This document shows, piece by piece, positions 2,358 through 18,199 of a stretch of DNA of 64,000 nt. How positions within the stretch are numbered: the first letter of the stretch is position 1; every line of letters starts with the position of its first letter. The translations under genes and the position numbers were made by a program. This DNA is from Tagaea sp. CACIAM 22H2 (lineage in GTDB: Bacteria > Pseudomonadota > Alphaproteobacteria > CACIAM-22H2). The stretch covers positions 2,768-66,767 of the forward strand of contig PVXE01000004.1 in NCBI GenBank assembly GCA_014444615.1. Reading direction: 5' to 3'. The notes under the pieces were generated by a model. That model saw nothing but the letters and a program-made list of their open reading frames with translations. It was not told where the DNA came from and made no database searches.

Positions 2358-2359
2358 GC

Positions 2360-3631: not shown

Positions 3632-3639
3632 CGGGATAC

Positions 3640-4095
3640 ATCACCCTTTTGGCCGCTCATTGCCATCCCACAGACGATCCAATCTGCACGTTCAGGATCT
3701 AATTTCTTGGCCTATGAGATTCTGATTCTTGTATTTACAAAGCCATCCACGCGACAAAGCCTAAATCGATTGTCCGGCGAAAATTTTTTGAAATCAAGTT
3801 CTTGCTATCTTATACGACTCACTGTCCCGCCACTGACTTCCCAATTCGAGCATCTTCGCTGGTTTGGTAACTGGATCCCTCAAATAGCGTCCAACACCTG
3901 CATTACTGAGGCTGATGACCGTGGCGGTACAATCGACCAGCGGTTCTCGCTCACTTACATCAGCTGCAGCACGCCAAATTCCGTGTACTGATCGAGCGGG
4001 CTCGGTAGTTCTTAGTGGTATACACAAACACGACCAATAATAGTTAAGATCGCAAGGCTGTGAACTACGGCAGGGCGAGTTTCGTGATTTGAATC
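3640..4095. promoter_or_regulatory. AT-rich divergent intergenic/promoter region between the nuclease-ATPase operon and the Hhe-like gene
   Basis: About 450 bp visibly AT-rich compared with flanking coding DNA; no convincing ORF; lies between two divergently transcribed start codons (3631 minus, 4096 plus). Confidence 0.4.
3809..3827 (+). promoter_or_regulatory. T7-class (single-subunit RNAP) promoter-like motif, speculative
   Basis: cTTATACGACTCACTgtcc versus T7 consensus TAATACGACTCACTATAGGG: 13 of 14 contiguous identities in the recognition/specificity region but the +1 to +3 GGG is absent. About 270 bp upstream of the Hhe-like start, same strand. Confidence 0.15.
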
Positions 4096-7000
4096 TTGTC
4101 CAATTGCCTTGCCATTAACGATTCCCATAAACGCCTAGCGCAGTGCCCTCAAATGGATACGCCCCCATCTGCCACGCTCGATCGAATCCCCTCGTTGCTG
4201 GAGGAGGTTCGGCGGCGTCTTGTCGAGACCGGAACGCGAAACCGCCTCATTCATGTCAATCGCAAGGCCCTTAGGACCAATGCGTTAAACGTCGTGAATG
4301 AGCGATCAGATGACGTGTTTTCGATTCTACGAACCGAGGCACGCAGGATGCGATTCCGGGCTCTCGGCAAAGATCGGACGGAAGATGCGGATGGCCCGAT
4401 CCTAGCCGAGGAAACCGTCAACATCCAAATCGAAGCAAGACACCAGGACACGCTTCTCGATACACTTCTCGGTCCCGACGCCCTCCAGAAGCGCCTTCTC
4501 CGACTGGCAGACGAGGCGAAAGTCGCGGAGAATGAGCAAGGCGTAAATATCCTCTATCTCGCGCTCGGCTTCCTCACTTGGTACGAGGATGAGAAATCGA
4601 CGGTCGCGCGCGAAGCGCCGCTCATCCTCCTTCCGGTCGAGTTGGTGCGAAACGAGCGAGGATCAACGTTCGATATTCGCGCTCGCGACGACGATCTGTT
4701 CACGAACCTGCCACTGCAGGAACGACTAAAAGGCGATTTCGGGATACAGCTCCCGGAAATCGAAGAGAGCGACGCGTGGACGCCAGAAAGCTATTTCGAG
4801 CTTGTCGAGGATTGCATCGGCGAGAAGAAACGCTGGAAGATCGACCATGACGGAATCCAACTCGGATTCTTCTCGTTCGCCAAGTTGCTTATGCTCCGGG
4901 ATCTCGACCCCGCTAACTGGCCGGACGGCGCGCTGACCAAACTCGATATCGTCCGCCGGCTGTTGAAAGACGGCTTCGAGCAAGATGCGCCACTTTTCGG
5001 GCCGGAGGATCGGCTCGACGACAAGCTCGATCCCTGCGACATGCTACACGTCGTCGACGCCGACGCGTCGCAGACAAAAGTAATCGAAGAGGTGCGCAAA
5101 GGGCGCAATCTCGTCGTTCAAGGTCCGCCGGGAACGGGTAAGTCGCAGACCATCACGAACATCATCGCAGCTGCGGTCCACGATGGAAAATCGGTCCTGT
5201 TCATGGCCGAGAAAATGGCGGCGCTCGGGGTGGTCCACAACCGGCTCGTCAAGTCGGGGCTCCGGGACGTCTGCCTCGAGCTCCATTCGCGTAACGCCAA
5301 CAAGAAGCTCGTCCTGCAAGAACTGGCGCGAACGCTCAACGCGGCCGGATCGGTCGCTCAGTTGAACAACGATCCGACACAACTCCGCGAGCTCCGCGCC
5401 CAGCTCAACGAATGCGCCGAATTGCTCCATCGCGATGTGCCAGGTCGCGACTACACACCGTTCGAGGTGATTTCCCGGATTGTGAGCTTCATCGGAAAAG
5501 GCACAAGGCCGCCAACTCTGATACGCGAGGGGTTGGCGAGCCTGACGTCGGACGAAGTGGGGACTCTGGCAAAGACGATCCAAATTTACGTTGATCTGCT
5601 CGCCAAGTCCGGCCCTCGGCACGCACACCCGTTTGCCGGCGCGACCGCCGACGATATGCAGCCGACCGATCAACAGCGCCTCGCACTGGAACTGGATGCC
5701 GCCGCCGCCGCCTTCTCAAAATTCGACGCGACGCTCGCTCGGATCTTAGTGTCCGGTGGTTTGCCGCTGCCTTCGACCGTCGGCGACGCAGACCGTATTG
5801 CGGACCTTCTGGGGCGCCTCTCATCCTTGCCAGCGCGGCTAATGCCCTTGTGCGACGAACTCTTCGACAAGGCGGATGACAAACGCTTGCGCGAAGGGCT
5901 CGCCGCCGGTGCAGCTTGGCGTATGGCACGCGATGCAATCGAGAACATTTTCACCGATGCCGCTTGGACGCTTCCGGCGGCCGCGCTGCGGCCCTCGATC
6001 GCGAAAGGCACGTCCTCGTTCTTCGCTCGTGTGTTCGGCGGCTATCGCAGCGCGTGTGCCCAGCTAGCGAGCGTACTGCGGCAACCGCTTCCCAGGGCGT
6101 CGGGAGAGCGACTTCGACTTGTCGATCGCCTCCTCGAAGTCGAAAAACTGCGGACCGCACTGCGGGACGACGAAGACTATATTAAGACCTCGCTCGCCGA
6201 GCACTGGCGCGGCGAGCGCAGCGAATTCAGCGATCTCCACTTAGTCTTGAATTGGCTCACCGCGAACAAGAAAAGCGGTCTTGTGCTCACACGAGAGATG
6301 CTTACTGCGGTTCTGCGGCTTGCGACAGAATCGGCAAGCCATCGCGACGCGATCATGGCGGCCGCAAAGGACGTACGCGCCGCCGTCACAACGGTTCTCG
6401 ACCGTCTTGCCTTCGAACCGCCGATCGATGGCGATAGTTTCGACATTAAGCAAGTTGCCGCGCGTTTTACCTGCATGCGGCGCGAGCTCGCGCGCTATTC
6501 GGAGTGGACGGCCTTGCGCGGAGCGGTACGCCGCCTCGAACAATCCGAGCTTGGTACGCTCGTCGCGGCGATCGACGCGGGGAAGATCGCGCCTGACGAA
6601 GCCTCTGACGAGTTCCTCTATGCGACCGCTGAGGCGCGTTGGCGCGAAATCCGCAACACGATTCCGGCGTTGGCCGCTCTGCGAGAGACCGATCGCCACG
6701 GACTCGTCGCGCGCTTTCAGACTGCCGAACGCGATCGGATCGCCAGCGTCCAAAAGTTGATTCAGGCGAAGCATCTCGAGCAACTCCCGAGGGGTGCGGC
6801 GGGTGAGATGGCCGTCATCCGAGGCGAAATCGCTAAGAAGCGCTCGCATAAGCCAATCCGTAAGCTCTTCGAAGCGGCCGGTTCGATGGTTCGTCGCATC
6901 AAACCAGTCCTACTGATGAGCCCAATCTCGATTGCTCAATTCCTTCCGCCACAAAGGATCAATTTCGACCTACTCGTGATCGATGAGGCCAGTCAGGTCC

Positions 7001-8847
7001 GCCCAGAGGACGCGCTTGGTGCGGTCGCACGCGCCGCGCAGATCGTCGTCGTCGGCGACCAAAAGCAATTGCCGCCAACAAGCTTCTTTGACCGTCTCAC
7101 GGATGATGCGCCGGATGACGGATCAAGCGAGGAAGAAGAAAATGAGGCCCCCCAAGCGGCGAAAGCGACTGAGATGGAAAGCATCCTGACGCTCTGTGAA
7201 GCGCGGGGGCTCGGATCGCGAATGCTCGAGTGGCATTATCGATCGAGGGATCCTTCACTTATCAGCATCTCGAATGTCGAGTTCTACGAAAATCGTCTTG
7301 TCCTGCCACCCTCGCCGCTCCAGCTCGACAGAAACTATGGGCTTTCTTTCAGACGCGTTCCGGGCGCCTACAGCTCGAAGAGTCGCGGCGGTGGACGACC
7401 TGGGACCAATCGGATCGAAGCCGAGGAGATCACCAAGATGATCGCCGCGCATGCGCGGGACTGGCCAGAGCTTTCGCTTGGCGTTGTGGCTTTCTCGAAG
7501 GCGCAAAGCGACATGCTGAATGAGGCGATCGAAGTCGCGCGCCGCAAGGACGCCGTGCTGGACAGCTTCATTCGAGCGAGCACGGCTGAGGAATTCTTTG
7601 TCAAAAACATCGAAAACGTCCAGGGCGATGAGCGCGATGTGATCCTGATAAGCATCGGCTACGGACCCCACGAGCCCAACGGCCGCCTCGCCTCGATGCA
7701 TTTCGGACCGGTGAACGGCGAGGGTGGCGAGCGGCGACTGAATGTCCTATTCAGCAGGGCCCGTGTGCGGTGCATTGCAGTCGCATCGTTCGATCCGTCA
7801 GAAATTGACCCAAGTCGCGCGTCCCGCAACGGTCCGCGTGTACTCAAAAGGTTTCTCGACTTCGCCATCAGCGGGCACCTCGACGAGCGTATCGCAACGG
7901 GCGATGCTGCCGAAAGCCCATTCGAGGACGATGTTGCAGACGTAATCGTATCGCTCGGCTACTGCGCCGATGCTCAGGTTGGCAGCGCCGGCTTCAGGAT
8001 CGATATCGGCGCGCGCCATCCCGATCGGCCGGGGCAATACATCCTGGCCGTCGAATGCGACGGCGCGACATGGCACGGCGCGCTATGGGCGCGCGAACGC
8101 GATCGTCTACGTCAGGATGTTCTCGAGAATCTCGGGTGGCGCTTCCACCGCATCTGGAGCACCGATTGGTTCCATCGTCGCGATCAGGAAATTGCCCGAT
8201 TGCGCGCGGCGCTCGAATCCGCCAACGCCGAAGGCAAGAAGGGCACGTATGTCCGCGGCGCCAACGACCGGACGGATGTATCGATTGAGGATCAAGTTAC
8301 CGACGGCTCGAACGCATCAGAGGAATCTCCGGTGTCTGCTCTGCCACAGATCGAGGTTCCGGCTTATCGGCGCGCCGAAATCCCTGCACCCATCGGCGGT
8401 GAGCCACACGATGCGCCGATTGAAGTGCTAGCTGAGATGGCATTACGGATCATTGAGATAGAGGGGCCTATCCATACCGATGAGATTGCGCGGCGGGTGG
8501 CGGCTGGGTTTGGAAAGAGCAAGGCAGGAGGACGTATCCAGAAAGCCGCGACCGCGGCGCTCGACAAAGTAAGACGCAAGGGTGGAATCATCGCGTTTCA
8601 GGATTTTTGGATGACGCTATCCCAGCAAGCGTCACCGCCTGTGCGCAACCGTGCTGCCGAGTCCACGCCAACGACGAGAGCGATCCATATTTGTCCGCTG
8701 GAAATTCGCGCAGCTGCAGCCCTCATCTCAAGAGAGAGTGGGAATGTTCAAACGGACGAGATGATCCGATCAGTTGCACGTCTACTTGGATTTCAGCGAG
8801 TTGGCGCCGATCTCCAGGCCCAAATAAGTGACGCACTACAATCGTGA
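4096..8847 (+). CDS. Hhe-like defence protein: DUF4011 N-domain + Upf1/Dna2-like SF1 helicase (AAA_11/AAA_12) + Vsr/DUF559-like endonuclease + DUF3320 C-domain
   Basis: 1583 aa. Walker A VVQGPPGTGKSQT; motif II LLVIDEASQV; LEWHYRSRDPSLISISNVEFYENRL; NVQGDERDVILISIGYG; NVLFSRARVRCIAV (SF1 motifs in order, with the long insertion typical of AAA_11). Then GYCADAQVGSAGFRIDIGARHP...ILAVECDGATWHGALWARERDRLRQDVLENLGWRFHRIWSTDWF (DUF559/Vsr-fold endonuclease signature) and a C-terminal IRIIEIEGPIHTDEIARRV...IAFQDFWMT region resembling DUF3320. Alternative start at 4153 (MDTPPSATLDRIPSLLEEVRRRL). Confidence 0.8.
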   Translation: MSNCLAINDSHKRLAQCPQMDTPPSATLDRIPSLLEEVRRRLVETGTRNRLIHVNRKALRTNALNVVNERSDDVFSILRTEARRMRFRALGKDRTEDADGPILAEETVNIQIEARHQDTLLDTLLGPDALQKRLLRLADEAKVAENEQGVNILYLALGFLTWYEDEKSTVAREAPLILLPVELVRNERGSTFDIRARDDDLFTNLPLQERLKGDFGIQLPEIEESDAWTPESYFELVEDCIGEKKRWKIDHDGIQLGFFSFAKLLMLRDLDPANWPDGALTKLDIVRRLLKDGFEQDAPLFGPEDRLDDKLDPCDMLHVVDADASQTKVIEEVRKGRNLVVQGPPGTGKSQTITNIIAAAVHDGKSVLFMAEKMAALGVVHNRLVKSGLRDVCLELHSRNANKKLVLQELARTLNAAGSVAQLNNDPTQLRELRAQLNECAELLHRDVPGRDYTPFEVISRIVSFIGKGTRPPTLIREGLASLTSDEVGTLAKTIQIYVDLLAKSGPRHAHPFAGATADDMQPTDQQRLALELDAAAAAFSKFDATLARILVSGGLPLPSTVGDADRIADLLGRLSSLPARLMPLCDELFDKADDKRLREGLAAGAAWRMARDAIENIFTDAAWTLPAAALRPSIAKGTSSFFARVFGGYRSACAQLASVLRQPLPRASGERLRLVDRLLEVEKLRTALRDDEDYIKTSLAEHWRGERSEFSDLHLVLNWLTANKKSGLVLTREMLTAVLRLATESASHRDAIMAAAKDVRAAVTTVLDRLAFEPPIDGDSFDIKQVAARFTCMRRELARYSEWTALRGAVRRLEQSELGTLVAAIDAGKIAPDEASDEFLYATAEARWREIRNTIPALAALRETDRHGLVARFQTAERDRIASVQKLIQAKHLEQLPRGAAGEMAVIRGEIAKKRSHKPIRKLFEAAGSMVRRIKPVLLMSPISIAQFLPPQRINFDLLVIDEASQVRPEDALGAVARAAQIVVVGDQKQLPPTSFFDRLTDDAPDDGSSEEEENEAPQAAKATEMESILTLCEARGLGSRMLEWHYRSRDPSLISISNVEFYENRLVLPPSPLQLDRNYGLSFRRVPGAYSSKSRGGGRPGTNRIEAEEITKMIAAHARDWPELSLGVVAFSKAQSDMLNEAIEVARRKDAVLDSFIRASTAEEFFVKNIENVQGDERDVILISIGYGPHEPNGRLASMHFGPVNGEGGERRLNVLFSRARVRCIAVASFDPSEIDPSRASRNGPRVLKRFLDFAISGHLDERIATGDAAESPFEDDVADVIVSLGYCADAQVGSAGFRIDIGARHPDRPGQYILAVECDGATWHGALWARERDRLRQDVLENLGWRFHRIWSTDWFHRRDQEIARLRAALESANAEGKKGTYVRGANDRTDVSIEDQVTDGSNASEESPVSALPQIEVPAYRRAEIPAPIGGEPHDAPIEVLAEMALRIIEIEGPIHTDEIARRVAAGFGKSKAGGRIQKAATAALDKVRRKGGIIAFQDFWMTLSQQASPPVRNRAAESTPTTRAIHICPLEIRAAAALISRESGNVQTDEMIRSVARLLGFQRVGADLQAQISDALQS

Positions 8848-8850
8848 TGG

Positions 8851-9300
8851 CATGCTACGAGCTTTGTAGACACGCGGGTTAGCCAATCGCATCTTGGCCT
8901 CGAACACCATCGGGCTCACGTGGCCGATCGTCGAGTGGCGTCGTCACGGATTGTAGAAACGCTCGATTTAGTCGAACACGTCGTCCCTTGCGTCGTCGCG
9001 CGTCCGATAGTCCTTGCGCCCGATGCGTTCGGTCTTGCACGACGAGAAGAAGCTCTCCATCACCGCGTTATCCCAGACATTGCCCGTCCGGCTCATTGAA
9101 CAGACGATGCCCTGATCAGCGAGCAATCGCTGGAACGCTTCGCTGCCGTACTGGTTGCCGCGATTGGAGTGATTCAGCACCAACCTCAGGCGTCCTCGTC
9201 GTCATATCGCCGTCATCGGCGCGTCGATCAGCCGACCACCCGGCACGAGAACAGGCCGAGGACCACGGCCACGTGCCTCCCATCAGTCCCCATGGGACAG
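8851..9300 (-). pseudogene. IS3-family transposase (OrfB, DDE integrase core C-terminus) remnant, frameshifted
   Basis: Minus-strand ORF 8968-9183 reads LNHSNRGNQYGSEAFQRLLADQGIVCSMSRTGNVWDNAVMESFFSSCKTERIGRKDY.TRDDARDDVFD; other frames continue with YIERFYNP and RRHSTIGHVSPMVFEAKMRLANP, the canonical IS3 OrfB C-terminus broken by at least two frameshifts/stops. No intact OrfA/OrfB upstream. Left boundary approximate. Confidence 0.65.
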
Positions 9301-9692
9301 TTTACAAGCGTGCATTCGGCTCATCGTCACTGTGAAAGAGAAGAAGATCAAACTCATGAAACAGACCTCACTGAACGATTCGGCCTAAGAGAAGGTTGAG
9401 TTTGTCATCTCCGAGTTCTCGGTGCGATTCCTCGATCGTTGAGCGAGGCGCGCCTGAAGCGGATGAATTGGACAAATTTGTCCTGCTGCTTGTTGAGCCT
9501 AAGCGGTCGAGAAATAATCATTTTTATCAGATCATCGTCGCAGCACGACAAAAACGTCCAAATTCACTTTCTATTCTTTGGTGGTTTTCAGCCTCTAATT
9601 TCGTTTTTTATCTTTTGACCATGGAGTTTGCTCGATGTTTTCATGATTAGAGGCGCCTGCATTCCGGCGCATAATTTGAACGAGGTCCCAAA

Positions 9693-9932
9693 ATGGAATC
9701 CGATAAAGATAAATCTGAAAAGGTTCCTATCCAGATATGGGTGAAATCAGAAGACAAAGCCTATCTCATGTATTTGAAGCAGAAGCTCCGCTTTAAGCGG
9801 CTAGACGAGCTGTTTAATATCTTGCTTGATGATTTGTTTGAAAGCGAAGGCCTTGAAAGGATTTGTGGTACGAGCAAGGACGATTTGAAGAAACGAAAAG
9901 ATTTTGAATTGAATGTGAAAATAAAAGTTTGA
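9693..9932 (+). CDS. small hypothetical protein, possible ribbon-helix-helix (CopG/MobC-like) DNA-binding fold, in a strongly AT-rich patch
   Basis: 79-aa ORF with a GAGG about 6 nt upstream of the ATG. KVPIQIWVKSEDKAYLMYLKQKL..LDELFNILLDDLF fits a beta-strand then two helices (RHH-like). Codon usage/GC clearly foreign to the rest of the window. Weak call. Confidence 0.35.
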   Translation: MESDKDKSEKVPIQIWVKSEDKAYLMYLKQKLRFKRLDELFNILLDDLFESEGLERICGTSKDDLKKRKDFELNVKIKV

Positions 9933-10364
9933 ATGACTGCCCATAGCCTAATCTTGAGAGTTTTTTGGTTTTTATTTTCCAACCTAATTCTGAATAATTT
10001 TCATTGGCGCGTCGCACACTTGTCGAGATTGCTGGCTAATTGACTGATCGGTAGATTGATTGCGGTGGTCAATCCCGTTTTAGCGACAGTAAGTCGTCGG
10101 CGATAAGCGCATCGATACTGCTGTCCATCGCTATTGCGTTTCTTACTCCAGTCCTTCAGCGATGCCGAACTTGGGTTTGGTATTTGCCATTGTCGCGCAC
10201 GCATCCTCCCACCGGGAAAGCTGGCACCCATCTCGACTTCGCGATTCCATCGTGCATGGCGACGCTAAAGATCCTGCGTCGTACCTCTCGATGCCACAGC
10301 GCATGCTCGCGGATTCGCCAGAAGGCACGATCGCTCTCTTTGCCGGCGCTTCTTCGGCCGCTCT

Positions 10365-10808
10365 TCACGCCATCATAGAAGATGTAGCGGCTTCGATCTC
10401 TCGTACGAGTTCCGGGCGCTTGTCGAGCAAAGCCAGCAGGAGCGCCGCCGAATGGCGCTGGCGGAAATTGGTGTGGTCGAGCGCGTCGAAGCCGCCGGGC
10501 GTGCCCATGATCAACGCGCTCAGGCCGCGAAACGTGAGCGTCTCGTATCGCGCGGCCCGGAGCTTCTTCACGATCCGCCGCGCCGCACGCCGGAGGGCGC
10601 GGGCGTCAGCCGCTTTCATCTCCGCGAGCGCCCGGTCGGCGGCCGCGCCATCTTCGCGCCACATCAGCCCGTCATCGGCGCCTTCGGGAAACCAACCCTT
10701 CACCCTCGCGGTACGCGTCATCCCACCGTAAACGACGGTTATGTCGCGCTCGGCCCGGCGCAGCTTGACACCGGTTACCGGATGAACACGCGTGTGCGGT
10801 GTCCGCAT
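10365..10808 (-). CDS. MqsA-family antitoxin-like HTH protein (degenerate N-terminal zinc-ribbon-like domain + C-terminal XRE HTH)
   Basis: Trimmed from ORF 10365-10871 to internal MRTPHTRV start. C-terminus ...HTNFRQRHSAALLLALLDKRPELVREIE parallels E. coli MqsA ...GNAQPHPSTIKLLRVLDKHPELLNEIR. N-terminal region parallels the MqsA zinc-ribbon region but lacks the Cys ligands. No MqsR-like toxin ORF adjacent. Confidence 0.5.
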   Translation of the reverse strand: MRTPHTRVHPVTGVKLRRAERDITVVYGGMTRTARVKGWFPEGADDGLMWREDGAAADRALAEMKAADARALRRAARRIVKKLRAARYETLTFRGLSALIMGTPGGFDALDHTNFRQRHSAALLLALLDKRPELVREIEAATSSMMA

Positions 10809-10821
10809 TGCGACGCGCCTC

Positions 10822-11148
10822 TCACGCCGCTGTACGCGGTGCGGCGGCAATTCGCGAGAGATCCTTGGCAATGCGCCGCTTGGCGCGCCAAAGGTCGTGG
10901 GTTCCCTGCATGCGTAGAAACATCTCGGCCGAACCGCCGGCGACGGCGCTGAAGCGCAGCGCCATTTCCGGCGAGACCGCCCCCGCGCACGACAAGACGC
11001 GATGCAACGTCTGGCGCCTGACGCCCATCCGAGCCGCCGCGTCGGCCGTCGAGAGCTTCAAATGCTCGTGGACGATTTCATTTATCAACTCGCCTGGATG
11101 CGTCGGTTCGCGGGCGATCTCGCGGGTTTGGAATTTTGTCATCAGCAT
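10822..11148 (-). CDS. HigA-family antitoxin-like XRE-type HTH protein
   Basis: Trimmed to MLMTKF start (ORF track start at 11265 is probably an over-extension). THPGELINEIVHEHLKLSTADAAARMGVRRQTLHRVLSCAGAVSPEMALRFSAVAGGSAEMFLRMQGTHDLW matches the HigA/VapI consensus (xHPGEIL...LGxSxxxLAxxLGVxRxxxxxxxxGKRxITxxxALRLxxxFGxSxEFWLNLQxxYDL). No HigB/RelE-like ORF upstream on the minus strand (checked all frames for about 300 bp). Confidence 0.65.
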   Translation of the reverse strand: MLMTKFQTREIAREPTHPGELINEIVHEHLKLSTADAAARMGVRRQTLHRVLSCAGAVSPEMALRFSAVAGGSAEMFLRMQGTHDLWRAKRRIAKDLSRIAAAPRTAA

Positions 11149-11733
11149 AGCCTCGGCCTCAAGATTACTAGAAGCAGGATTGTGAAACGAGTCCGACACT
11201 GCGGACGGCGGGGCTCGCGCCCGCACCGGTTCTACGACGCCAATATGCATAGGCGCACTTAACATCCCGCGTCGCGGGCCGTCGAAACCCCGGTATCAGC
11301 CCCCTGCGCGGGCGTGTCGAACGGATGCGCGCGGACGCGGACGGGGTCGTCGCACCGGTAAGCCTGGCCGGCACGAAGACCCGGCACGCTCTTCCCGCTG
11401 ACGCCGGACAGGCGAAGCAGCGAAGGGCGAAACCGCACCCCGCACCGGTGCGGGAGATTTCCCAAAAGCCACCCAGCGAACCCCCTTGAGACCCAGCGGG
11501 ACCGTTGGGCGGGTGCCGCGCACCCGCACGCCATTTCCGAAAAAAAACGAGGCGGCGGCGGTTCGGGTCGGGTGGGGAAAAGGGGCGGAAGACCCGAACG
11601 GCGTCGACACGCGATTTTAAGTGCCGAGAGGTTAGCCTCCCGGGTGTTGGGTTCGGGAAACCCGTTCAGGGCGCAATAACGCATCCTGCACTTTTTTGGG
11701 GTGCACGATGCTTGCGAAAGGTCGATTTCGGCG

Positions 11734-12105
11734 ATGGCCAAACATGACCACGAACCCGACTGGGAGGAACTGAAACAGGGCTGGCTTGAGGAGGGTAACC
11801 ACGACGAATTGGGCCTGACCGGATCCGGACGCGGCGCGCGCCAATCCCCGTTCTATTTGCGTCTGTCGGTGCGTCCGGCCCGGCAGCTTGGCCAACTCGC
11901 CGACAAGCGGCCAGAGCCGCTGGACGCACCTGAGGTTCGAGTCGCCTTCTGCGCCCGACTTCCAGCCGAGACGGCGGTGGCGCAGCCGCGCCCGGCGCGC
12001 GAGTTGCGGTCTGTAGGTGCTGTAGGTGCGCGTGCGTGCATTCAATCGGCTTGCGGCCGCAGCATCTTCAGGTTCACCGGTAGCGCTGGGGCTGGCGAGG
12101 CATAA
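11734..12105 (+). CDS. hypothetical protein (123 aa), very uncertain
   Basis: Internal start MAKHDHEPDWEELKQGWLEEGNHDELGLTGSG...; no recognisable motif; high-GC region where spurious ORFs are common. Contains the tandem ctgtaggtg x2. Confidence 0.2.
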   Translation: MAKHDHEPDWEELKQGWLEEGNHDELGLTGSGRGARQSPFYLRLSVRPARQLGQLADKRPEPLDAPEVRVAFCARLPAETAVAQPRPARELRSVGAVGARACIQSACGRSIFRFTGSAGAGEA

Positions 12106-12192
12106 GGCCAGGGCGCTCGCCCGGGAAGGCGCGGAAGCGGTGCCCGATCGCCATCGCCTGGAATAGCCCTGGCGCGCGGCTGGGATGGCTAG

Positions 12193-12450
12193 GTGACGAT
12201 CCCAGCCCCGCAGGCGCGAAGGCGCAACGACGGCGTCGACGAGGCGGTCTGGATCGAACTCTCGGCCCGGCGGCGAATGGCCGAGTGCGCCGAGCTCGCG
12301 CGCATCTGGACGTCCGGTGCGCGCCCGGAAGCCGCGCTGTCGGTCGAGATCGGCGTGGCCGTCGGCATGGTCGCCGCCGCGCTCGACGCGCATGCCGAAA
12401 CTGCCGGAGCTCGGGTGCGGCGGGCCGCGAAAAGCCGCGAACGCGACTGA
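12193..12450 (+). CDS. hypothetical small protein (85 aa), very uncertain
   Basis: ORF MTIPAPQARRRNDGVDEAVWIELSARRRMAECAELARIW...; ends 12 bp before the direct-repeat array; no motif recognised. Confidence 0.15.
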   Translation: MTIPAPQARRRNDGVDEAVWIELSARRRMAECAELARIWTSGARPEAALSVEIGVAVGMVAAALDAHAETAGARVRRAAKSRERD

Positions 12451-12470
12451 TGCGGTAAGAAAGAGGGTTT

Positions 12471-12545
12471 GTCACCGATGTGAATCGGGTTGTCACCTTT
12501 GAATTCGCACGCAAATTCGATAGCGCGTGATTCGCGTTGTCACAG
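12471..12545. repeat. direct repeat copy A (75 bp) with three TTGTCAC motifs
   Basis: gtcaccgatgtgaatcgggttgtcacctttgaattcgcacgcaaattcgatagcgcgtgattcgcgttgtcacag; about 93 percent identical to copy B 152 bp downstream; followed 22 bp later by an inverted GTGACAAA. Confidence 0.8.
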
Positions 12546-12622
12546 GCTGGCGCCGGGTCGACCGCCGGCTGTGACAAATGCGAGGAAAGCCGCGCTTTTC
12601 GCACGCCCGAATTTCGGGTTCT

Positions 12623-12697
12623 GTCACCGATGTGAATCGGGTTGTCGTCATTGAATTCGCACGCAAATTCGATAGCGCATGAATCGCGTTGTCACAG
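12623..12697. repeat. direct repeat copy B (75 bp)
   Basis: gtcaccgatgtgaatcgggttgtcgtcattgaattcgcacgcaaattcgatagcgcatgaatcgcgttgtcacag; followed 22 bp later by GTGACAAA (12721-12728), as for copy A (12571-12578). Confidence 0.8.
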
Positions 12698-13029
12698 TGC
12701 GTTTTGATCGGGTCGCGCGGGTGACAAAGCGCGTATTTCGCGACCTCGGCGGTTTGAGCGGTGCCGGGCTCTTCTATTTTGTTAGTTTGGCGGGCTTGCC
12801 GGGCGATTTTTCGTAGTTCGCCCACATCTCAACCCGCTCGACAGTCATGAACCCAAGCTGAGACTGTGCGGTGGCGTTTTCGACATTCTGGCAATAAGCA
12901 TCACCGATGCGCCGTCCAAATTTTCGTAGTTTCATGTTTTCATAGTTTTTTCCGCCACCTGATCAGTGGTCTCGTGCACTCGACCTTGTTGTGAAGGTGC
13001 CCAAATCGCTGAACTAAAACACATTTAAA

Positions 13030-13057
13030 AGTGAAATTCCTAAAACCAGGAATTTCA
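13030..13057. promoter_or_regulatory. perfect 11-bp inverted repeat (candidate operator or recombinase/RDF binding site) in AT-rich leader upstream of the recombinase gene
   Basis: GTGAAATTCCT aaaacc AGGAATTTCAC; sits in a visibly AT-rich stretch (about 12840-13320) about 265 bp upstream of the recombinase ATG. Confidence 0.45.
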
Positions 13058-13320
13058 CGCGCAGCACGGCGATTTTAAGTCCCTCGGCTGCATGATTAAT
13101 CCATGACTAAGCGTGGAAACGAACTGCTGACTTCGCATCCTGTGGCGCTGCCGCAGGCCGAAGTTGCGGCGCGAGTCCGAAAAACCAGCAAAGATACCGC
13201 CGATCGGATCAATCCTATTGCCCAGAATCGGAAGGCCCGTCTTACCTTACACTCGTCTAATGCTCCCTCGGCTTTTGCGGCTGTGATTTTGGGCGAATTT
13301 CTGCTGAAGCGAATAAAGAG

Positions 13321-14838
13321 ATGATTAAGGCAGTCCTTTACATTCGATCTTCGAAAGATCGCGCGGATGCATCGCCTGCCGCACAGCGACGCGCTTTGCA
13401 GGAGCTTGCTCGACAGCGTCATTTCGCGATTGTTGGAGAATTTGTTGATACGGTCGTCTCCGGAAAGGATGACGACCGACCTGGCTTTCAATCTCTTCTT
13501 CGAGCGATGCGCTCCAAGGATCGAGGTTGGACCCATATTCTTGCTGTAGACACCGCGCGCATCGCTCGCCGCCGGTCGATTGCAATCATTTTTGAAGAAC
13601 AGGAGTGCAAGCGTCAGGGCGTGAGCGTCGTGTACAAGTCGTTGCCTGAAGCGGATCCCGCGATGGAGATGCTTTTAAAAAGCATCTTGCAGGCGATGGA
13701 CGAATGGCATTCGCTGACGTCCAGGGCGAAAGGCGTCGCCGGAATGGCCGAAAATGTTCGCCAAGGTTGGCGGGCGGGCGGCAGAGCGCCGAAAGGCTAC
13801 GTGCTAAAATATGTCAGCACTGGCGCCGTTCGAGATGGCGAACAAGTCATGAAGTCGGTCTTAACACCCGCCGACGATGCGCCTGCCGTCAGTCAATTCT
13901 TGAAGCACAGGTCGAGAGGCATCCGCCGCGGGCGAGCCCTTGCGCTCGCTGGATTGTCTTGGCCACCAACCACAGCAATCGAGGTTGAGCGCAACGCTCA
14001 ACTTTATGCTGGCCACACGACCTGGAATCGTACGGAAGAGCGTTTGAAGGACGGTTACGCAGGCGGCCGTAAATGGCGGCCAGAAGAAGAGTGGGTGACT
14101 AATCGGAACACTCACCCCGCACTAATTACCGATGCTGAAGCACGAGCTATCCTCGATGGATTGAACGCGCGACGCCGCAGCGGAGGCTACCCCGCCCGCC
14201 AGATCTATCTTTTCGGCGGCATGATGACTGCCCCATCGGGGGCGAGATGGTCCGGAGATAGTGGGTACTATCGGCTCGGAAAAACGTCCCGCATCTCCGC
14301 CAAAGCAGTGGAGCAAGCCGTAATGGGGCGGGTGATCGAAGACTTCAAATCCGAACGCATGGTTGATGCGATCATCAATTCGATCCGCCAGGCTTCCGTT
14401 ACCATCGATGTCGGGCAAGACACGTCGAAGATCGAGCGCAAACGTGTCGAGACAGATCGAAAGATCGCGCGACTTACCGAACTCGTCTCAGAGACGCGAA
14501 CACCTGCCCCTTTGCTTCGCCAAATTGAGACTTTGGAAGCCGAACGCGAAGTGATCCTATCGCAGATCGCGCAAGCGAAAGCCCCTAAGGGGCCATCGCT
14601 GGACCTGTCGCATCTCAGACCCAGCGATATTCGAGCAATGCTCGACGATCTTGCGACAGAGCTGACGACATCGACAGCGCCCGAAATGCGCGATCTCGTT
14701 CAGCAGGTGATTGAGAAAGTGGAGTTATGCGCCGAAAGCTTCGAGGCGACGATCCACTATCGACCGCTTCCACTCCCAGGCGAAAGCGGGGTACGGCTGG
14801 CGTCCCCACGGGGATTCGAACCCCGGTCTGCACCGTGA
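13321..14838 (+). CDS. large serine recombinase (resolvase/invertase N-domain + recombinase domain + C-terminal coiled coil)
   Basis: 505 aa; N-terminus MIKAVLYIRSSKD (catalytic Ser in Y-x-R-S-S context), ILAVDTARIARR (resolvase D-R-x-x-R motif); long C-terminal recombinase/coiled-coil region (IERKRVETDRKIARLTELVSETR..LLRQIETLEAERE). Last 41 nt overlap the tRNA-Glu gene on the opposite strand. Confidence 0.8.
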   Translation: MIKAVLYIRSSKDRADASPAAQRRALQELARQRHFAIVGEFVDTVVSGKDDDRPGFQSLLRAMRSKDRGWTHILAVDTARIARRRSIAIIFEEQECKRQGVSVVYKSLPEADPAMEMLLKSILQAMDEWHSLTSRAKGVAGMAENVRQGWRAGGRAPKGYVLKYVSTGAVRDGEQVMKSVLTPADDAPAVSQFLKHRSRGIRRGRALALAGLSWPPTTAIEVERNAQLYAGHTTWNRTEERLKDGYAGGRKWRPEEEWVTNRNTHPALITDAEARAILDGLNARRRSGGYPARQIYLFGGMMTAPSGARWSGDSGYYRLGKTSRISAKAVEQAVMGRVIEDFKSERMVDAIINSIRQASVTIDVGQDTSKIERKRVETDRKIARLTELVSETRTPAPLLRQIETLEAEREVILSQIAQAKAPKGPSLDLSHLRPSDIRAMLDDLATELTTSTAPEMRDLVQQVIEKVELCAESFEATIHYRPLPLPGESGVRLASPRGFEPRSAP

Positions 14839-14873
14839 GAGGGTGCCGTCCTGGGCCTCTAGACGATGGGGAC
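14798..14873 (-). tRNA. tRNA-Glu (anticodon CUC)
   Basis: Reverse complement GTCCCCATCGTCTAGAGGCCCAGGACGGCACCCTCTCACGGTGCAGACCGGGGTTCGAATCCCCGTGGGGACGCCA: 7-bp acceptor stem pairs perfectly, GTCTAGAGGCCCAGGAC D-arm as in bacterial tRNA-Glu, anticodon stem GCACC/GGTGC with loop CTCTCAC (anticodon CTC), T-arm CGGGG-TTCGAAT-CCCCG, encoded CCA. Confidence 0.85.
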
Positions 14874-14950
14874 AGGCCTTCGGAAGGGCTGAGCATGTAG
14901 CCCATCGGCGGGCGGGACGCAAGCCGCCGCCGGACCCCGCGATTTGCCCT

Positions 14951-15982
14951 TTAAATCGCGGCTTTGGCGGTGGCGATCAGGCGTTCGGCGTCGGCTTCCC
15001 GGCTGTTCCACGACGCGACGAGGCGCAAACGCCGCGTGCCCGGCCCGAACCAGCGATAGACGGCGAAGCCTGCTTGCTCGATCGCGGCGATGGCCGCCTC
15101 GGGCAGATCGACGAAAACCTCGTTGGCTTGCACCGGATGGGCGAGCTTCGCGCCCGGCAAGGCGGCGAGCCCGCTCGCGAGCTTCGCCGCGACCGCGTTC
15201 GACTGGCGCGCAAGGTCAAGCCACAAGCCGCCGTCGAGATAGCCCGCCATCTGTGCGGCGAGATAGCGGTGCTTGGAAAACAAATGCCCCGCGCGCTTGC
15301 GCCGGAAGGCGAGCGTGGCCGCCAGCGCGTCGTCGAACACGACGATCGCTTCGACCGCGAGGCAGCCGTTCTTCGTGCCGCCGAAGGACAGGATATCGAC
15401 GCCGGCTTTCCACGTCGCCTCGGCCGGCGTGCAATTGCTCGCGACCAGCGCGTTGGCGAAGCGCGCGCCGTCGAGATGGACCTTCAGCCCGTGCTTGCGC
15501 GCGATGGCCGACAAGGCCGCGATTTCGGCCGGCGAATAGATCGTGCCCGCCTCGGTCGCGTTGGTCAGCGACAAGGCGGCGGGCTGCACATGATGCACCC
15601 CCCCCGCCCCGGCCGCGTTCAACGCCGCGTCGAGATCGGCGGGTGCCAACTTGCCGTGTTCGCCGTCGAGCCCGACAAGCTTGGCGCCGCCCGTGTAGAA
15701 TTCCGGCGCGCCGCATTCGTCTTCCTCGATATGCGCCGCCGCGTGGCAATAGATCGAGCCCCACACCGGCGTCATCGCGGCAAGCGACAACGCGTTGGCC
15801 GCCGTGCCGGTGGATACGAGGAACACTTTCGCGGGCCGCTCGAAGATCGCGGCGATTTTCGCTTCCACGTCGCGCGACAGCGCATCGTTGCCGTAGGGCA
15901 TCGAGGGTGCCGCATTGGCGGCTTCCAGTGCCGCCATCACCTGCGGATGGACGGGGGCGGTGTTGTCGGAGGCGAAGTTCAT
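14951..15982 (-). CDS. ltaE: low-specificity L-threonine aldolase
   Basis: Trimmed from 698-aa track ORF to MNFASDNTAPVHPQVMAALEAANA... (343 aa); PLP-aldolase signature (FASDN N-terminus, KHGLKVHLDGARFANA, SFGGTKNG with the PLP lysine). Confidence 0.8.
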   Translation of the reverse strand: MNFASDNTAPVHPQVMAALEAANAAPSMPYGNDALSRDVEAKIAAIFERPAKVFLVSTGTAANALSLAAMTPVWGSIYCHAAAHIEEDECGAPEFYTGGAKLVGLDGEHGKLAPADLDAALNAAGAGGVHHVQPAALSLTNATEAGTIYSPAEIAALSAIARKHGLKVHLDGARFANALVASNCTPAEATWKAGVDILSFGGTKNGCLAVEAIVVFDDALAATLAFRRKRAGHLFSKHRYLAAQMAGYLDGGLWLDLARQSNAVAAKLASGLAALPGAKLAHPVQANEVFVDLPEAAIAAIEQAGFAVYRWFGPGTRRLRLVASWNSREADAERLIATAKAAI

Positions 15983-16311
15983 GGGCGCGCCCCCAGCAGA
16001 ATGCGGCCGGTCACGCGCCCGGCCTTCGGGTCGATCACGACCAGGAAGGGGGCGGCCGCCGGCGGGTTCACATGCACCACGACCTGATCGCCCGCCGCGA
16101 AGGCGCCCGCAATGACCGAGCCTTCGGGAGCCGAAATCGCGACATCGCCCCAGCCGAGCCCCGCAATCGGCGGGCGCGGTGCCGCGGCCGATGGCGGCGT
16201 CTCCGGCGATGAAGGCTTGCCCACACCGCCGATAACCACATAAATCAGAAAGGCGAACGCGGCGACGCACAGCACGCCGAGGAAAATCACGATCGTCTTC
16301 AAGGCGCGCAT
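15979..16311 (-). CDS. small membrane-anchored hypothetical protein, translationally coupled to ltaE
   Basis: MRALKTIVIFLGVLCVAAFAFLIYVVIGG (one TM helix) then Pro/Ala-rich linker and a small C-terminal domain; ATGA overlap with ltaE. Start uncertain: its ATG overlaps the divergent rluD start (CATG); a downstream TTG/GTG start is possible. Confidence 0.4.
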   Translation of the reverse strand: MRALKTIVIFLGVLCVAAFAFLIYVVIGGVGKPSSPETPPSAAAPRPPIAGLGWGDVAISAPEGSVIAGAFAAGDQVVVHVNPPAAAPFLVVIDPKAGRVTGRILLGARP

Positions 16312-17260
16312 GTCGGAATCCAGCGAAATCGAGATCGGACCGGAATTGGCGGGAACGCGGCTGGATCGCGTGCTGGCCGATGCGTCGGGCATCGGGGCCT
16401 CGCGCAGCCGCGTGAAGGCGTTGATCGAGGCGGGCCACGCCCGCATCGACGGCGCGACCGTACAAGACCCCTCCCGCAAGGTCAAAGCGGGCGAAACGGT
16501 GACGCTGGAAATCCCCGATCCGGTCGCTTCCAGCCAAGCGGCCGAGGAAATTCCGCTGACGATCCTCTACGAGGACGCGCATCTGATCGTGATCGACAAG
16601 CCAGCCGGCCTGGTCGTTCACCCCGCCCCCGGCCATTCCGGCGGCACGCTGGTCAATGCGCTCCTGGCGCATTGCAAAGGCTCGCTGTCGGGGATCGGCG
16701 GCGTGGAACGCCCCGGCATCGTCCATCGCCTGGACAAAGACACGAGCGGCCTGATGGTCGCGGCGAAAACCGACGCGGCGCATCGCGACCTCGCCGCGCA
16801 ATTCGCCGAACATTCGGTCGAGCGCGTCTACGCCGCGATCGTCAAGGGCGTGCCGCGCCCCGCATCGGGCGAAATCGAAGGCAATATCGGGCGCAATCCG
16901 CGCGACCGCAAAAAAATGGCCGTCGTGAAAAGCGGCGGCAAAGAAGCGCTGACCCGCTATCGCACGCTCGAGATTTTGGCGAAAAGCAGGGCTGCGCTGA
17001 TCGAATGCCGGCTGGCCACCGGCCGCACGCATCAAATCCGCGTGCATCTCGCGTCGATCAACTGCCCGCTGCTCGGCGACCCGACTTATGCCCGCAAAGT
17101 CGCGGGCTTACCCGATTTTGGCCGGCAAGCGTTGGACGCGTTCACGCTGGGGTTTCGCCATCCCGAAAGCGGAGAAACCTTACGGTTCGTGCGGCCATAT
17201 GCGCCGGATTTTCTGCGGTATCTCGCGCTATTGCGCGGGGCTTCGCGCGTGCAAGAATAG
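16310..17260 (+). CDS. rluD: RluA-family 23S rRNA pseudouridine synthase (RluD/RluC-like, N-terminal S4 domain)
   Basis: LDRVLADASGIGASRSRVKALIEAGHARIDG (S4), HRLDKDTSGLMVAAKT (catalytic Asp motif), GRTHQIRVHLA. Confidence 0.8.
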   Translation: MSESSEIEIGPELAGTRLDRVLADASGIGASRSRVKALIEAGHARIDGATVQDPSRKVKAGETVTLEIPDPVASSQAAEEIPLTILYEDAHLIVIDKPAGLVVHPAPGHSGGTLVNALLAHCKGSLSGIGGVERPGIVHRLDKDTSGLMVAAKTDAAHRDLAAQFAEHSVERVYAAIVKGVPRPASGEIEGNIGRNPRDRKKMAVVKSGGKEALTRYRTLEILAKSRAALIECRLATGRTHQIRVHLASINCPLLGDPTYARKVAGLPDFGRQALDAFTLGFRHPESGETLRFVRPYAPDFLRYLALLRGASRVQE

Positions 17261-17305
17261 CGCGGCGCGGGGCGCTCGACCCCGCGCTTCAGGAGCACAG
17301 CCCAC

Positions 17306-18199
17306 GTGAAGTCGCGATTGCCCGCGCCGGACGGGAACCTGACGCGATATCTGCAGGATATCCGCAAGTTTCCGCTGCTGGAGCCGGAAGAGGAATTCAT
17401 GCTCGCCAAGCGCTGGCGGGAAACCGGTGATGCCGATGCGGCGCACCGGCTGGTGACCGCGCATCTGCGCTTGGTCGCGAAAATCGCCATGGGCTATCGC
17501 GGCTACGGCTTGCCGCTGTCGGAACTCGTGTCCGAAGGCAATGTCGGCATGATGCAGGCGGTCAAGCGCTTCGATCCCGATCGCGGCTTCCGCCTATCGA
17601 CCTATGCGATGTGGTGGATCCGCGCCGCGATCCAGGAATACATCCTGCACTCCTGGTCGCTGGTGAAGATGGGCACCACGGCCGCGCAGAAGAAGCTGTT
17701 CTTCAATCTGCGCCGGATGAAGGCGCAGATGCGCCAACTCGACGAAGGCGATCTGCCGCCCGAAGCGGTCCAAAAGATCGCGACCCAGCTCGGCGTGCCC
17801 GAGCAGGACGTGGTGCAGATGAACCGGCGCCTGGCCGCTCCCGACCATTCGCTGAACGCGCCCGTTCGCAACGACGGCGACGGGGACGGCGAATGGCAGG
17901 ATTGGCTGGTCGACGAGGAGGACAATCAGGAAGTCCGCCTTGCCGAGGACGAGGAAGGCAAGCGCCGTCAAGCTTTGCTCGACAAGGCGCTGGTCACGCT
18001 GAACGCGCGCGAGCGCGATATCCTGACCGAGCGGCGCTTGAAGGACGAGCCCGCGACGCTCGAGGATCTCTCGCAGAAATTCGGCATCAGCCGCGAACGC
18101 GTGCGGCAGATCGAAGTGCGCGCGTTCGAAAAGCTTCAGCGCGCGGTGAAGCAGAACGTGCTGGACGAGGCGGGTGCCAAGGAAACCGCGTCGTCTTAG
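17306..18199 (+). CDS. rpoH: RNA polymerase sigma-32 (heat-shock sigma factor)
   Basis: GTG start; RpoH box-like QRKLFFNLRRMKAQM, region 2 (YGLPLSELVSEGNVGMMQAVKRFDPDRGFRLSTYAMWWIRAAIQEYI), region 4 HTH (LEDLSQKFGISRERVRQIEVRAFEKL). Confidence 0.85.
   Translation: MKSRLPAPDGNLTRYLQDIRKFPLLEPEEEFMLAKRWRETGDADAAHRLVTAHLRLVAKIAMGYRGYGLPLSELVSEGNVGMMQAVKRFDPDRGFRLSTYAMWWIRAAIQEYILHSWSLVKMGTTAAQKKLFFNLRRMKAQMRQLDEGDLPPEAVQKIATQLGVPEQDVVQMNRRLAAPDHSLNAPVRNDGDGDGEWQDWLVDEEDNQEVRLAEDEEGKRRQALLDKALVTLNARERDILTERRLKDEPATLEDLSQKFGISRERVRQIEVRAFEKLQRAVKQNVLDEAGAKETASS

Follow-up and report, generated by a model that had tools for sequence, protein, structure and literature searches.

A large serine integrase gene that ends inside tRNA-Glu: evidence for an integrase family with attP nested in its own coding sequence

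What kind of event leaves a large serine recombinase gene ending inside a tRNA gene? The question is raised by a 64,000-nucleotide stretch of Tagaea sp. CACIAM 22H2 (contig PVXE01000004.1, positions 2,768 to 66,767 of the forward strand; the window, below), in which a recombinase open reading frame (ORF) runs 41 nucleotides (nt) into a tRNA-Glu gene encoded on the opposite strand. The answer that we consider very probable is that the overlap is one attachment junction (attL) of a mobile element whose serine integrase gene contains the element's own attachment site (attP), the target (attB) being the 3' end of tRNA-Glu. A preliminary description of the locus had reported the overlap; it did not anticipate attP within the recombinase gene as the cause. 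The features on which the argument rests are the following, in window coordinates.

13321 to 14838, plus strand: integrated (attL) form of the gene for a large serine recombinase, an ORF of 505 amino acids with an ATG start and Pfam Resolvase and Recombinase domains.
14798 to 14873, minus strand: intact tRNA-Glu gene, anticodon CUC (ARAGORN).
14836 to 14838, plus strand: TGA stop codon of the integrated form, the antisense of tRNA U35-C36-A37, read from the sequence.
14786 to 14827, no strand assigned: attL, placed by its alignment register with the att sites of the family.
14786 to 14807: P arm of attL, within the recombinase coding sequence, with outer motif GCGGGGTA.
14810 to 14827: B' arm of attL, in the tRNA T-arm, with CCCC at 14821-14824.
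14808 to 14809: predicted crossover dinucleotide AC, tRNA nt 66/65, at the junction of acceptor stem and T-stem.

The recombinase ORF and the ARAGORN tRNA overlap at 14798-14838, as first described, and Rfam RF00005 gives a minus-strand tRNA match of 57.6 bits at 14801-14873. Because the TGA stop is the antisense of tRNA nt 35-37, the overlap keeps its length of 41 nt in both tRNA-Glu(UUC) and tRNA-Glu(CUC) hosts. The att sites of the family were numbered on the plus strand from the tRNA 3' end (T1 G2 G3 C4 G5 T6 C7 C8 C9 C10 A11 C12 G13 G14...), family position p being window coordinate 14797 + p. In this numbering the window attL fits the family consensus, its P arm having a run of G at -9 to -6 and its tRNA arm CCCC at 24-27. 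From the dyad centre and the attL/attR identity blocks (see below) we infer a crossover at 14808/14809, where A14808 and C14809 fall between codons 496 and 497. Given this predicted position, residues 1-496 would be encoded by the element and residues 497-505 (RGFEPRSAP, 9 codons), together with the stop, by antisense tRNA. The preliminary description had the island supplying the 3' portion of the tRNA. This would hold for about the last 11 nt, up to 14808/14809 (14798-14808, tRNA nt 66-76: the 3' strand of the acceptor stem with the discriminator base and CCA), and not for the whole overlap, the other 30 nt of which would be host tRNA read antisense by the recombinase ORF.

A genome scan with one genome per species returned 80 homologous loci, and a scan of the IMG/VR database returned 80 further, viral loci. 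The ORF ends exactly 41 nt into an opposite-strand tRNA-Glu in 58 of the 80 genome loci and in 13 of the 80 viral loci and, because of this exact recurrence, we regard the overlap as a family trait and not as chance. Other genome loci show a 40-nt overlap (one locus), a 57-nt overlap in another reading frame (one), a tRNA-type tail beside a cut tRNA (five), a long-type or otherwise atypical end (nine) or a truncated gene (six). The occupied tRNA-Glu of the genome loci mostly has the anticodon UUC and sometimes CUC, usually with a tRNA-Ala(GGC) next to it, and the association of recombinase and tRNA-Glu extends across about 100 loci. The carriers are ~40-kb phages and small islands, and the hosts belong to several proteobacterial classes, mainly Beta- and Gammaproteobacteria, the window host being an alphaproteobacterium. 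Searched against 1.84 billion cluster representatives, the C-terminal 205 residues matched 239 clusters (50% identity) at an expectation value (E) <= 0.001, and 107 at E <= 1e-10. No close relative was found among GenBank phage records and PLSDB plasmids, where the best matches are partial and <= 32% identical.

The C-termini of the 120 best homologues form two main groups, which split just after a common ...ASPR(G). Short-form homologues (~500-508 amino acids) end in FEPRSPP, FEPRLPP or FEPLLPP, which is the antisense translation of the tRNA T-arm, while long-form homologues (~510-525 amino acids) end in ...ELIPGF....VVIPHRRRA. A third variant has the same DNA in another frame (...WRPHGDSNP...), which shows that conservation at this point is of DNA rather than of peptide. 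The long form without any tRNA is found in 50 of the 80 IMG/VR loci, and a tRNA-type tail in 27, frequently where the sequence of a ~40-kb provirus has been trimmed. In the viral contig L139 phage genes flank the long-form gene in both directions: one flank encodes a tail fibre, the large terminase subunit and a virion protein, the other a 3'-phosphoadenosine-5'-phosphosulfate (PAPS) reductase and a DNA methyltransferase. We read L139 as a phage genome in its free configuration and the long form as the unintegrated, attP form of the integrase gene.

In the free form, attP is an imperfect palindrome of ~46 bp located within the last ~25 codons of the integrase gene. Of 54 attP-type sequences, 44 have their best centre of dyad symmetry at nt 11-12, as many as 18 of 22 positions then being complementary, and in the attP consensus a G at -8 (98%) mirrors a C at 31 (94%). 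The outer CCCC occupies 29-32 in attP but 24-27 in the tRNA arm, a register shift of 5 bp. According to a cryo-electron microscopy preprint on phiC31, a 5-bp shift between attP and attB half-sites is a rule of large serine integrases.

One subfamily is built differently. In L091 (~2950-3140), L092, L098 and L124, a tRNA-Glu-like att core lies in the sense orientation within the recombinase 3' end; the core reads ...TCGAAACCCCGTGGGGACGCCA..., its flanking inverted repeats are CCGGTTTAAG / CTAAACCGG, and the tail reads ...SKPRGDA.... A tRNA-Asp(GTC), probably phage-borne, follows 5-25 nt downstream on the same strand in three of these four loci.

If the overlap is an attL junction, the other end of the element should carry attR. 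Sites that resemble attR were found within 10 kb upstream in five genome loci (L031, L040, L055, L073 and L075), and the block of identity shared by attL and attR, 14-19 nt long (TGGCGTCCCCACGG(GGAT(T))), brackets the predicted crossover. At the left end of L040, a host terminator hairpin is followed by the tRNA 3' end and then by the P' arm. Read in the recombinase frame, this attR encodes LASPRG-CVPNPTPELCAVVPFRAPRNRRAA and a stop, ending in ...VVPFRAPRNRRAA, and phage contigs L136, L140 and L147 have natural tails that agree with the encoded one (...VPFQAPRNRKAA). The left half of the L040 attL joined to the right half of its attR gives GTGGGGTTAAGCTGGCGTCCCC-AC-GGGGATGCGTGCCTAACCCCAC, a sequence with symmetry at 18 of 22 half-site positions. 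The left junction of L055 is preceded by the relic of another recombinase 3' end, which indicates a tandem arrangement or the relic of one.

Empty sites were sought first with the flank of L040, which matched nothing, and then in metagenomes with the left flank of L031 joined to an uninterrupted tRNA-Glu. The second query returned two contigs, L161 and L162, in which the L031 left-flank terminator abuts an intact tRNA-Glu, followed by tRNA-Ala (92-94% identity to the left flank of L031 and 98.9% to the right one). These empty sites identify the 7.2-kb L031 element as an insertion. Insertion by a serine recombinase at the tRNA 3' end, proposed in the preliminary description, is thus borne out computationally by the conserved junctions, the far-end junctions, the symmetric and shifted attP of phage contigs and an empty site.

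Some loci of the family have peculiarities of their own. In L075 (4452-4490) the left-end repeat and the functional tRNA end disagree at two positions of the acceptor stem (TGGCAACCCC vs TGGCGTCCCC), so the repeat is not merely a copy displaced from the tRNA now in place. Two genomes have tandem tRNA-Glu genes (L008, 3921-4108; L022, 11469-11694), and there the last copy of the operon alone is occupied, its identical neighbour being empty. In L070 (~1650-1781) the usual C-terminus of the recombinase is missing and its ORF enters, in antisense, not tRNA-Glu but tRNA-Ala(GGC), the tRNA-Glu gene having apparently been removed by deletion. Finally, tRNA-Glu is cut short after the recombinase in L001 (~2940-2990), L034 (~5890-5940) and L060 (~6160-6210): only its 3' ~48 nt are present, as far as the anticodon stem, and unrelated DNA begins there. 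A complete tRNA-Glu lies ~9 kb downstream in L001 and L034; the search of L060 gave none. It would seem that a second element was inserted in between, via a different site in the same tRNA.

Mechanistically, the integrase would recombine the attP in its own gene with the tRNA-Glu 3' end, at the dinucleotide of tRNA nt 66/65. The P arm would be joined to the host tRNA, which would stay intact through the P arm's copy of the last 11 nt, while the original integrase tail of ~20 codons would be detached and left at the far end of the element, in attR. The integrase frame would then continue antisense through the T-arm and the anticodon stem, up to a TGA provided by the antisense of the Glu anticodon, and the outcome would be a fixed 41-nt overlap and a 9-residue, tRNA-encoded tail. 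Insertion would rewrite the tail because attP lies inside the recombinase gene.

This scheme requires a large serine integrase, and by its modelled fold the window recombinase is one, because it combines Resolvase and Recombinase domains with structural matches to the phiC31, SPbeta, Bxb1 and LI integrases. Pfam Resolvase (PF00239) covers residues 4-149 (E 1e-18) and Pfam Recombinase (PF07508) residues 208-277 (23.4 bits, cut-off 21.1). The AlphaFold model (100 homologues) has a mean predicted local distance difference test score (pLDDT) of 87. Its top Foldseek matches are the full-length phiC31, SPbeta and Bxb1 integrases and the C-terminal domain of LI integrase (4kis), with a probability of 1.0 each and identities to the solved structures of 13-22%; the fold also aligns with 4bqq (phiC31 N-terminal and recombinase domains), as it does with full-length integrases. 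Beta-strands at 311-326 and the coiled coil that follows align to 4kis, the coiled-coil motif of the C-terminal domain being formed by long helices at 327-420 (pLDDT > 90). Across the 100 homologues Y7, R9, S10, D77, R80 and R83 are invariant or nearly so, and the window recombinase keeps all invariant residues, R9, S10, D77, R80 and R83 among them.

With attP within the ORF, the free and the integrated form encode different C-termini, as seen in the homologues, in L040 and in the phage contigs. To the possibility that this exchange is functionless we give about even chances: attP and gene would then overlap as a result of genome compaction, both forms of the enzyme would behave alike, and directionality would be the task of a separate factor, as it is in other serine integrases. 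The integrated-form tail (492-505), predicted to be disordered (AlphaFold, pLDDT < 50), fits this possibility. So does the IPGF/NPVF motif, the part of the conserved free tail that has its explanation in the DNA, namely in the P' outer motif ATCCCCGG, and so does the L091-type subfamily, whose att core is reversed in the gene and where the constraint is on DNA and not on peptide. Past the P' arm, however, the long tails keep a hydrophobic strand and a basic C-terminus. Ala is the last residue in 79 of 118 distinct free-form tails (67%), with RRA (28), RAA (17) and LAA (7) as the commonest ends, and since these ends lie beyond the ~23-bp P' arm a constraint on attP DNA does not account for them. 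In addition, the free-form model P0086 has a beta-strand at 503-508 (pLDDT about 79) between low-confidence linkers, and the arrangement is kept family-wide, in hosts of several proteobacterial classes.

The functional counterpart, which we put forward tentatively and hold to be rather doubtful, is that the integrase keeps a record of its integration state by editing its own C-terminus. The strand and basic tail of the free form (...RRA or ...AA) would mark the enzyme for a protease, or would help to set its DNA binding or its directionality; integration would swap this tail for the short disordered one encoded by the tRNA, stabilising or re-tuning the enzyme, and the prophage form would thus be poised for excision and not for re-integration. 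The Ala-ending free tails are suggestive of a proteolysis tag that is lost on integration. If true, a serine integrase would possess a directionality or lysogeny switch built in at the protein level, and, whatever its function, attP inside the integrase gene provides a natural test case for an integrase that senses or records its own integration state.

Antisense read-through from the tRNA promoter could add a second layer of silencing. The relevant feature is a hairpin upstream of the recombinase gene.

13031 to 13058, minus strand: terminator-like hairpin with a 12-bp stem followed by a T run, past the 5' end of the recombinase operon.

This hairpin is the first strong minus-strand terminator-like site downstream of the tRNA. 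The terminator scan found no minus-strand terminator immediately downstream of the tRNA, and its other minus-strand match, inside the recombinase gene (13815-13828), is a weak 5-bp stem; no promoter-like sites were found in 12900-15100. In L040 the native tRNA terminator is displaced to the far end of the element. With no terminator directly after the tRNA, and with the L040 precedent of displacement, transcription from the tRNA promoter might hypothetically cross the recombinase gene in antisense.

Several observations weigh against the integration of a mobile element as an explanation of the window locus. A TA centre is found in a minority of sites (L071, L097, L103 and L112 among attP; L035, L041, L043 and L053 among attL), and in characterised serine integrases a palindromic centre such as TA abolishes the polarity that controls orientation. 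The attB arm on the tRNA-downstream side has no clear outer motif. The four zinc-ribbon cysteines usual in large serine integrases are not conserved, C96 being the sole conserved Cys in the 100 homologues; the Pfam search of the window recombinase gave no Zn_ribbon_recom, and in the model the region looks like a Cys-less equivalent. An attR within 10 kb upstream was recovered in only 5 of 60 integrated loci, and pattern and position-weight scans found none for the window element in the 64-kb window. An empty site is also missing from the window's own lineage, the two relatives found (L163 and L164) being both occupied. Lastly, the mechanistic statements on the family have sequence comparison as their basis; catalysis and the cleavage position are predicted, and the window copy is putatively mobile.

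The window element may be a fixed and immobile remnant, with a real but old attL, a far end that was lost or has decayed, and a recombinase that moves nothing. We consider this a possible but rather unlikely outcome. In its favour, the window has no attR-like site, both orthologous loci are occupied, with no attR within 10 kb upstream in L163, and the cargo resembles a defence island more than a complete phage. The search for a second copy of the tRNA 3' end, which the preliminary description had not found either, was negative throughout: a 45-mer and a 17-mer with <= 3 mismatches matched only the tRNA itself in the 64-kb window, a repeat finder detected no second copy, and in a position-weight scan built on 47 real sites the window attL scored 26.7 bits and the next best site in the 64 kb 8.5 bits, the minimum of genuine sites being 20.9 bits. 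A peptide resemblance to homologue tails at 8848-8919 on the minus strand (tblastn) was rejected as chance, its DNA score being 20 against a shuffled mean of 19.7.

A remnant is at odds, on the other hand, with a full-length ORF that keeps every family-invariant residue and with two attL arms that fit the family consensus. Moreover, just 14.8 kb lie left of the tRNA in the window, and many elements of the family measure ~40 kb. The relatives point in the same direction. L163 and L164 share the tRNA and the right flank (73-82% nucleotide identity to window 14786-18151) and are occupied by diverged recombinases, with 59% amino acid identity to the window enzyme; in L163, for which upstream sequence is present, the cargo differs from that of the window and includes a MobA/MobL relaxase. 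Recombinases at 59% and a different cargo, set against the identity of the flanks, favour turnover over a single ancient fixed insertion, and argue for turnover rather than vertical inheritance at the window tRNA-Glu locus. In the comparison with relatives proposed in the preliminary description, the orthologous locus is occupied, by diverged enzymes, and the empty site belongs to the L031 lineage and not to that of the window. The fixed overlap without any empty site, which it had named as the refuting outcome, was not what we observed, given the diverged recombinases, the different L163 cargo and the empty L161 and L162.

A different enzyme could also be responsible for the integration: a tyrosine integrase elsewhere in the element would use the tRNA, the serine recombinase being a passenger or a resolvase. 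Tyrosine integrases are the rule at tRNA genes in the literature, and a 288-aa tyrosine recombinase (Phage_int_SAM_2 / Integrase_1) is located directly upstream in L073 (8997-9863), L062 and L047. Homologues of this 288-aa enzyme are nevertheless present in only 5 of 160 loci and absent from the window, while the 46-bp dyad att site, with its 5-bp register shift, is centred inside the serine recombinase gene, and the serine enzyme accompanies tRNA-Glu in about 100 loci; we rate this explanation as very improbable. That the overlap is an artefact, the true stop upstream of the tRNA having been lost by sequencing error (as the preliminary description had allowed) or by chance read-through, has a negligible probability, since beyond its prior plausibility for a metagenome-assembled genome it faces the same frame and stop in dozens of independent assemblies and in isolate genomes (Nitrosospira multiformis Nl18, Ampullimonas aquatilis, Thermomonas sp. 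S9), as well as an identical protein deposited in NCBI from the metagenome-assembled genome of Tagaea sp. CACIAM 22H2 (locus tag C6Y20_02855).

We therefore return to the integrase with a nested attP and compare it with known systems. Its domain plan is that of phiC31, Bxb1, A118/LI, SPbeta SprA and TP901-1, which have the same resolvase catalytic and recombinase domains and a beta-rich domain with an inserted coiled coil. It also shares with these canonical large serine integrases a short dyad-symmetric att site, a central dinucleotide and an outer motif that lies 5 bp further out in attP. Unlike them, with their protein-coding targets, the present family targets a tRNA gene, has attP inside the integrase coding sequence and lacks conserved zinc-ribbon cysteines.

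With the tRNA-integrating islands and prophages of the Islander class, which have tyrosine integrases, the family has in common the abutment of integrase and tRNA, the copy of the tRNA 3' end that restores the gene, a far end marked by a direct repeat, the displaced 3' fragment (here in the relatives L031, L040, L055, L073 and L075) and the tandem hosting of elements by one tRNA (here L001, L034, L055 and L060). It differs in using a serine enzyme, in an identity block of only 14-19 nt, in a short palindromic att site instead of arm-type sites, and in a predicted 2-nt staggered exchange at the junction of acceptor stem and T-stem.

The closest precedent is found in mycobacteriophage BPs and its relatives, with their integration-dependent immunity (Broussard et al. 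2013; PMC4557955). There, attP lies inside an ORF and integration into a tRNA gene alters the C-terminus of the protein; in BPs the viral form of that protein ends in an ssrA-like degradation tag, and the integrase too has a C-terminal proteolysis signal. In BPs the gene that crosses attP is that of the repressor and the integrase is a tyrosine enzyme, whereas here the integrase gene itself crosses attP. The free tails of the present family mostly end in ...RRA, ...RAA or ...LAA, and a role comparable to the BPs tag is purely hypothetical. The 'suicidal' archaeal tyrosine integrases of the SSV type (PMC7253208) also have the site within their own ORF, and integration splits their gene into two inactive parts. 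The alteration of the integrase gene by integration is therefore shared; in the present case the enzyme is a serine integrase, a tail of ~20 residues is exchanged and the integrated gene remains full length.

Serine integrases are thought to avoid tRNA genes, and the literature agrees with the preliminary description that such an enzyme is unusual there: according to the Islander and TIGER papers, serine integrases were not known at tRNA genes. TIGER (Mageeney et al. 2020, PMC7192596) assigned 14 of 297 serine-integrase elements computationally to tRNA or transfer-messenger RNA (tmRNA) genes, a use that its authors describe as "not reported previously" and in need of experimental proof. The 465 tips of the TIGER serine-integrase tree include sites in tRNA-Phe, Met, Thr, Arg, Ala, Leu, Ser, Asn, Gly and His and in tmRNA, and none in tRNA-Glu; the paper describes no att architecture for these elements and no attP within a gene. 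Our literature search returned no description of the present family, of a serine integrase at tRNA-Glu or of attP inside a serine integrase gene; the papers on JC1 (rimO) and A118 (comK), also checked, were not relevant. The window locus is a member of a coherent, widespread and, by this search, previously undescribed family of serine integrases, specialised on tRNA-Glu and with attP nested in their own gene. The family shows how the symmetry naturally present in the acceptor and T stems of a tRNA can serve to make a short palindromic site for a serine integrase, and for genome engineering it offers an attB that is already present in very many proteobacterial genomes.

Left of the recombinase, the window contains the cargo of the element and a small ORF that adjoins the recombinase gene.

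1 to 13320, no strand assigned: element cargo, identified by guanine-plus-cytosine (GC) content, Pfam and PADLOC, with the far end outside the window.
1 to 2360, minus strand: SbcC/YhaN-like ATPase, a 799-codon open frame that runs off the left window edge.
2360 to 3631, minus strand: Metallophos phosphoesterase (Pfam).
4096 to 8847, plus strand: helicase-nuclease of 1583 amino acids with DUF4011, AAA_11/12, MTES_1575 nuclease and DUF3320 domains (Pfam).
13103 to 13324, plus strand: small ORF of 73 amino acids, whose stop codon overlaps the recombinase start (ATGA).

The GC content is 0.52-0.62 over most of 1-10000, mixed up to 14800, and 0.64-0.71 right of the tRNA. Because the ATPase frame leaves the left edge and the far end lies outside the window, the element should be longer than 14.8 kb. 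The helicase-nuclease matches the PADLOC candidate PDC-S37 from end to end (1739 bits) and is a candidate defence gene. The 73-aa ORF is weakly similar to ORFs at the same position in L001, L081 and L007; Pfam gave no match for it or for its neighbouring ORFs, and it is a possible candidate for an accessory protein or a directionality factor.

Further to the left, the region 10500-12500 is GC-rich and without recognisable genes, and it is preceded by an AT-rich stretch (9501-10000, GC 0.376) that contains an imperfect inverted repeat of 31 nt (9896-9926 / 9970-10000). Upstream of the recombinase operon, two direct repeats of 81 nt (12465-12545 and 12617-12697) share 91% identity and are separated by 152 nt; motifs of the GTCACCGATGTGAATCGGGTTGTC type occur in them, and they could be operator- or iteron-like sites.

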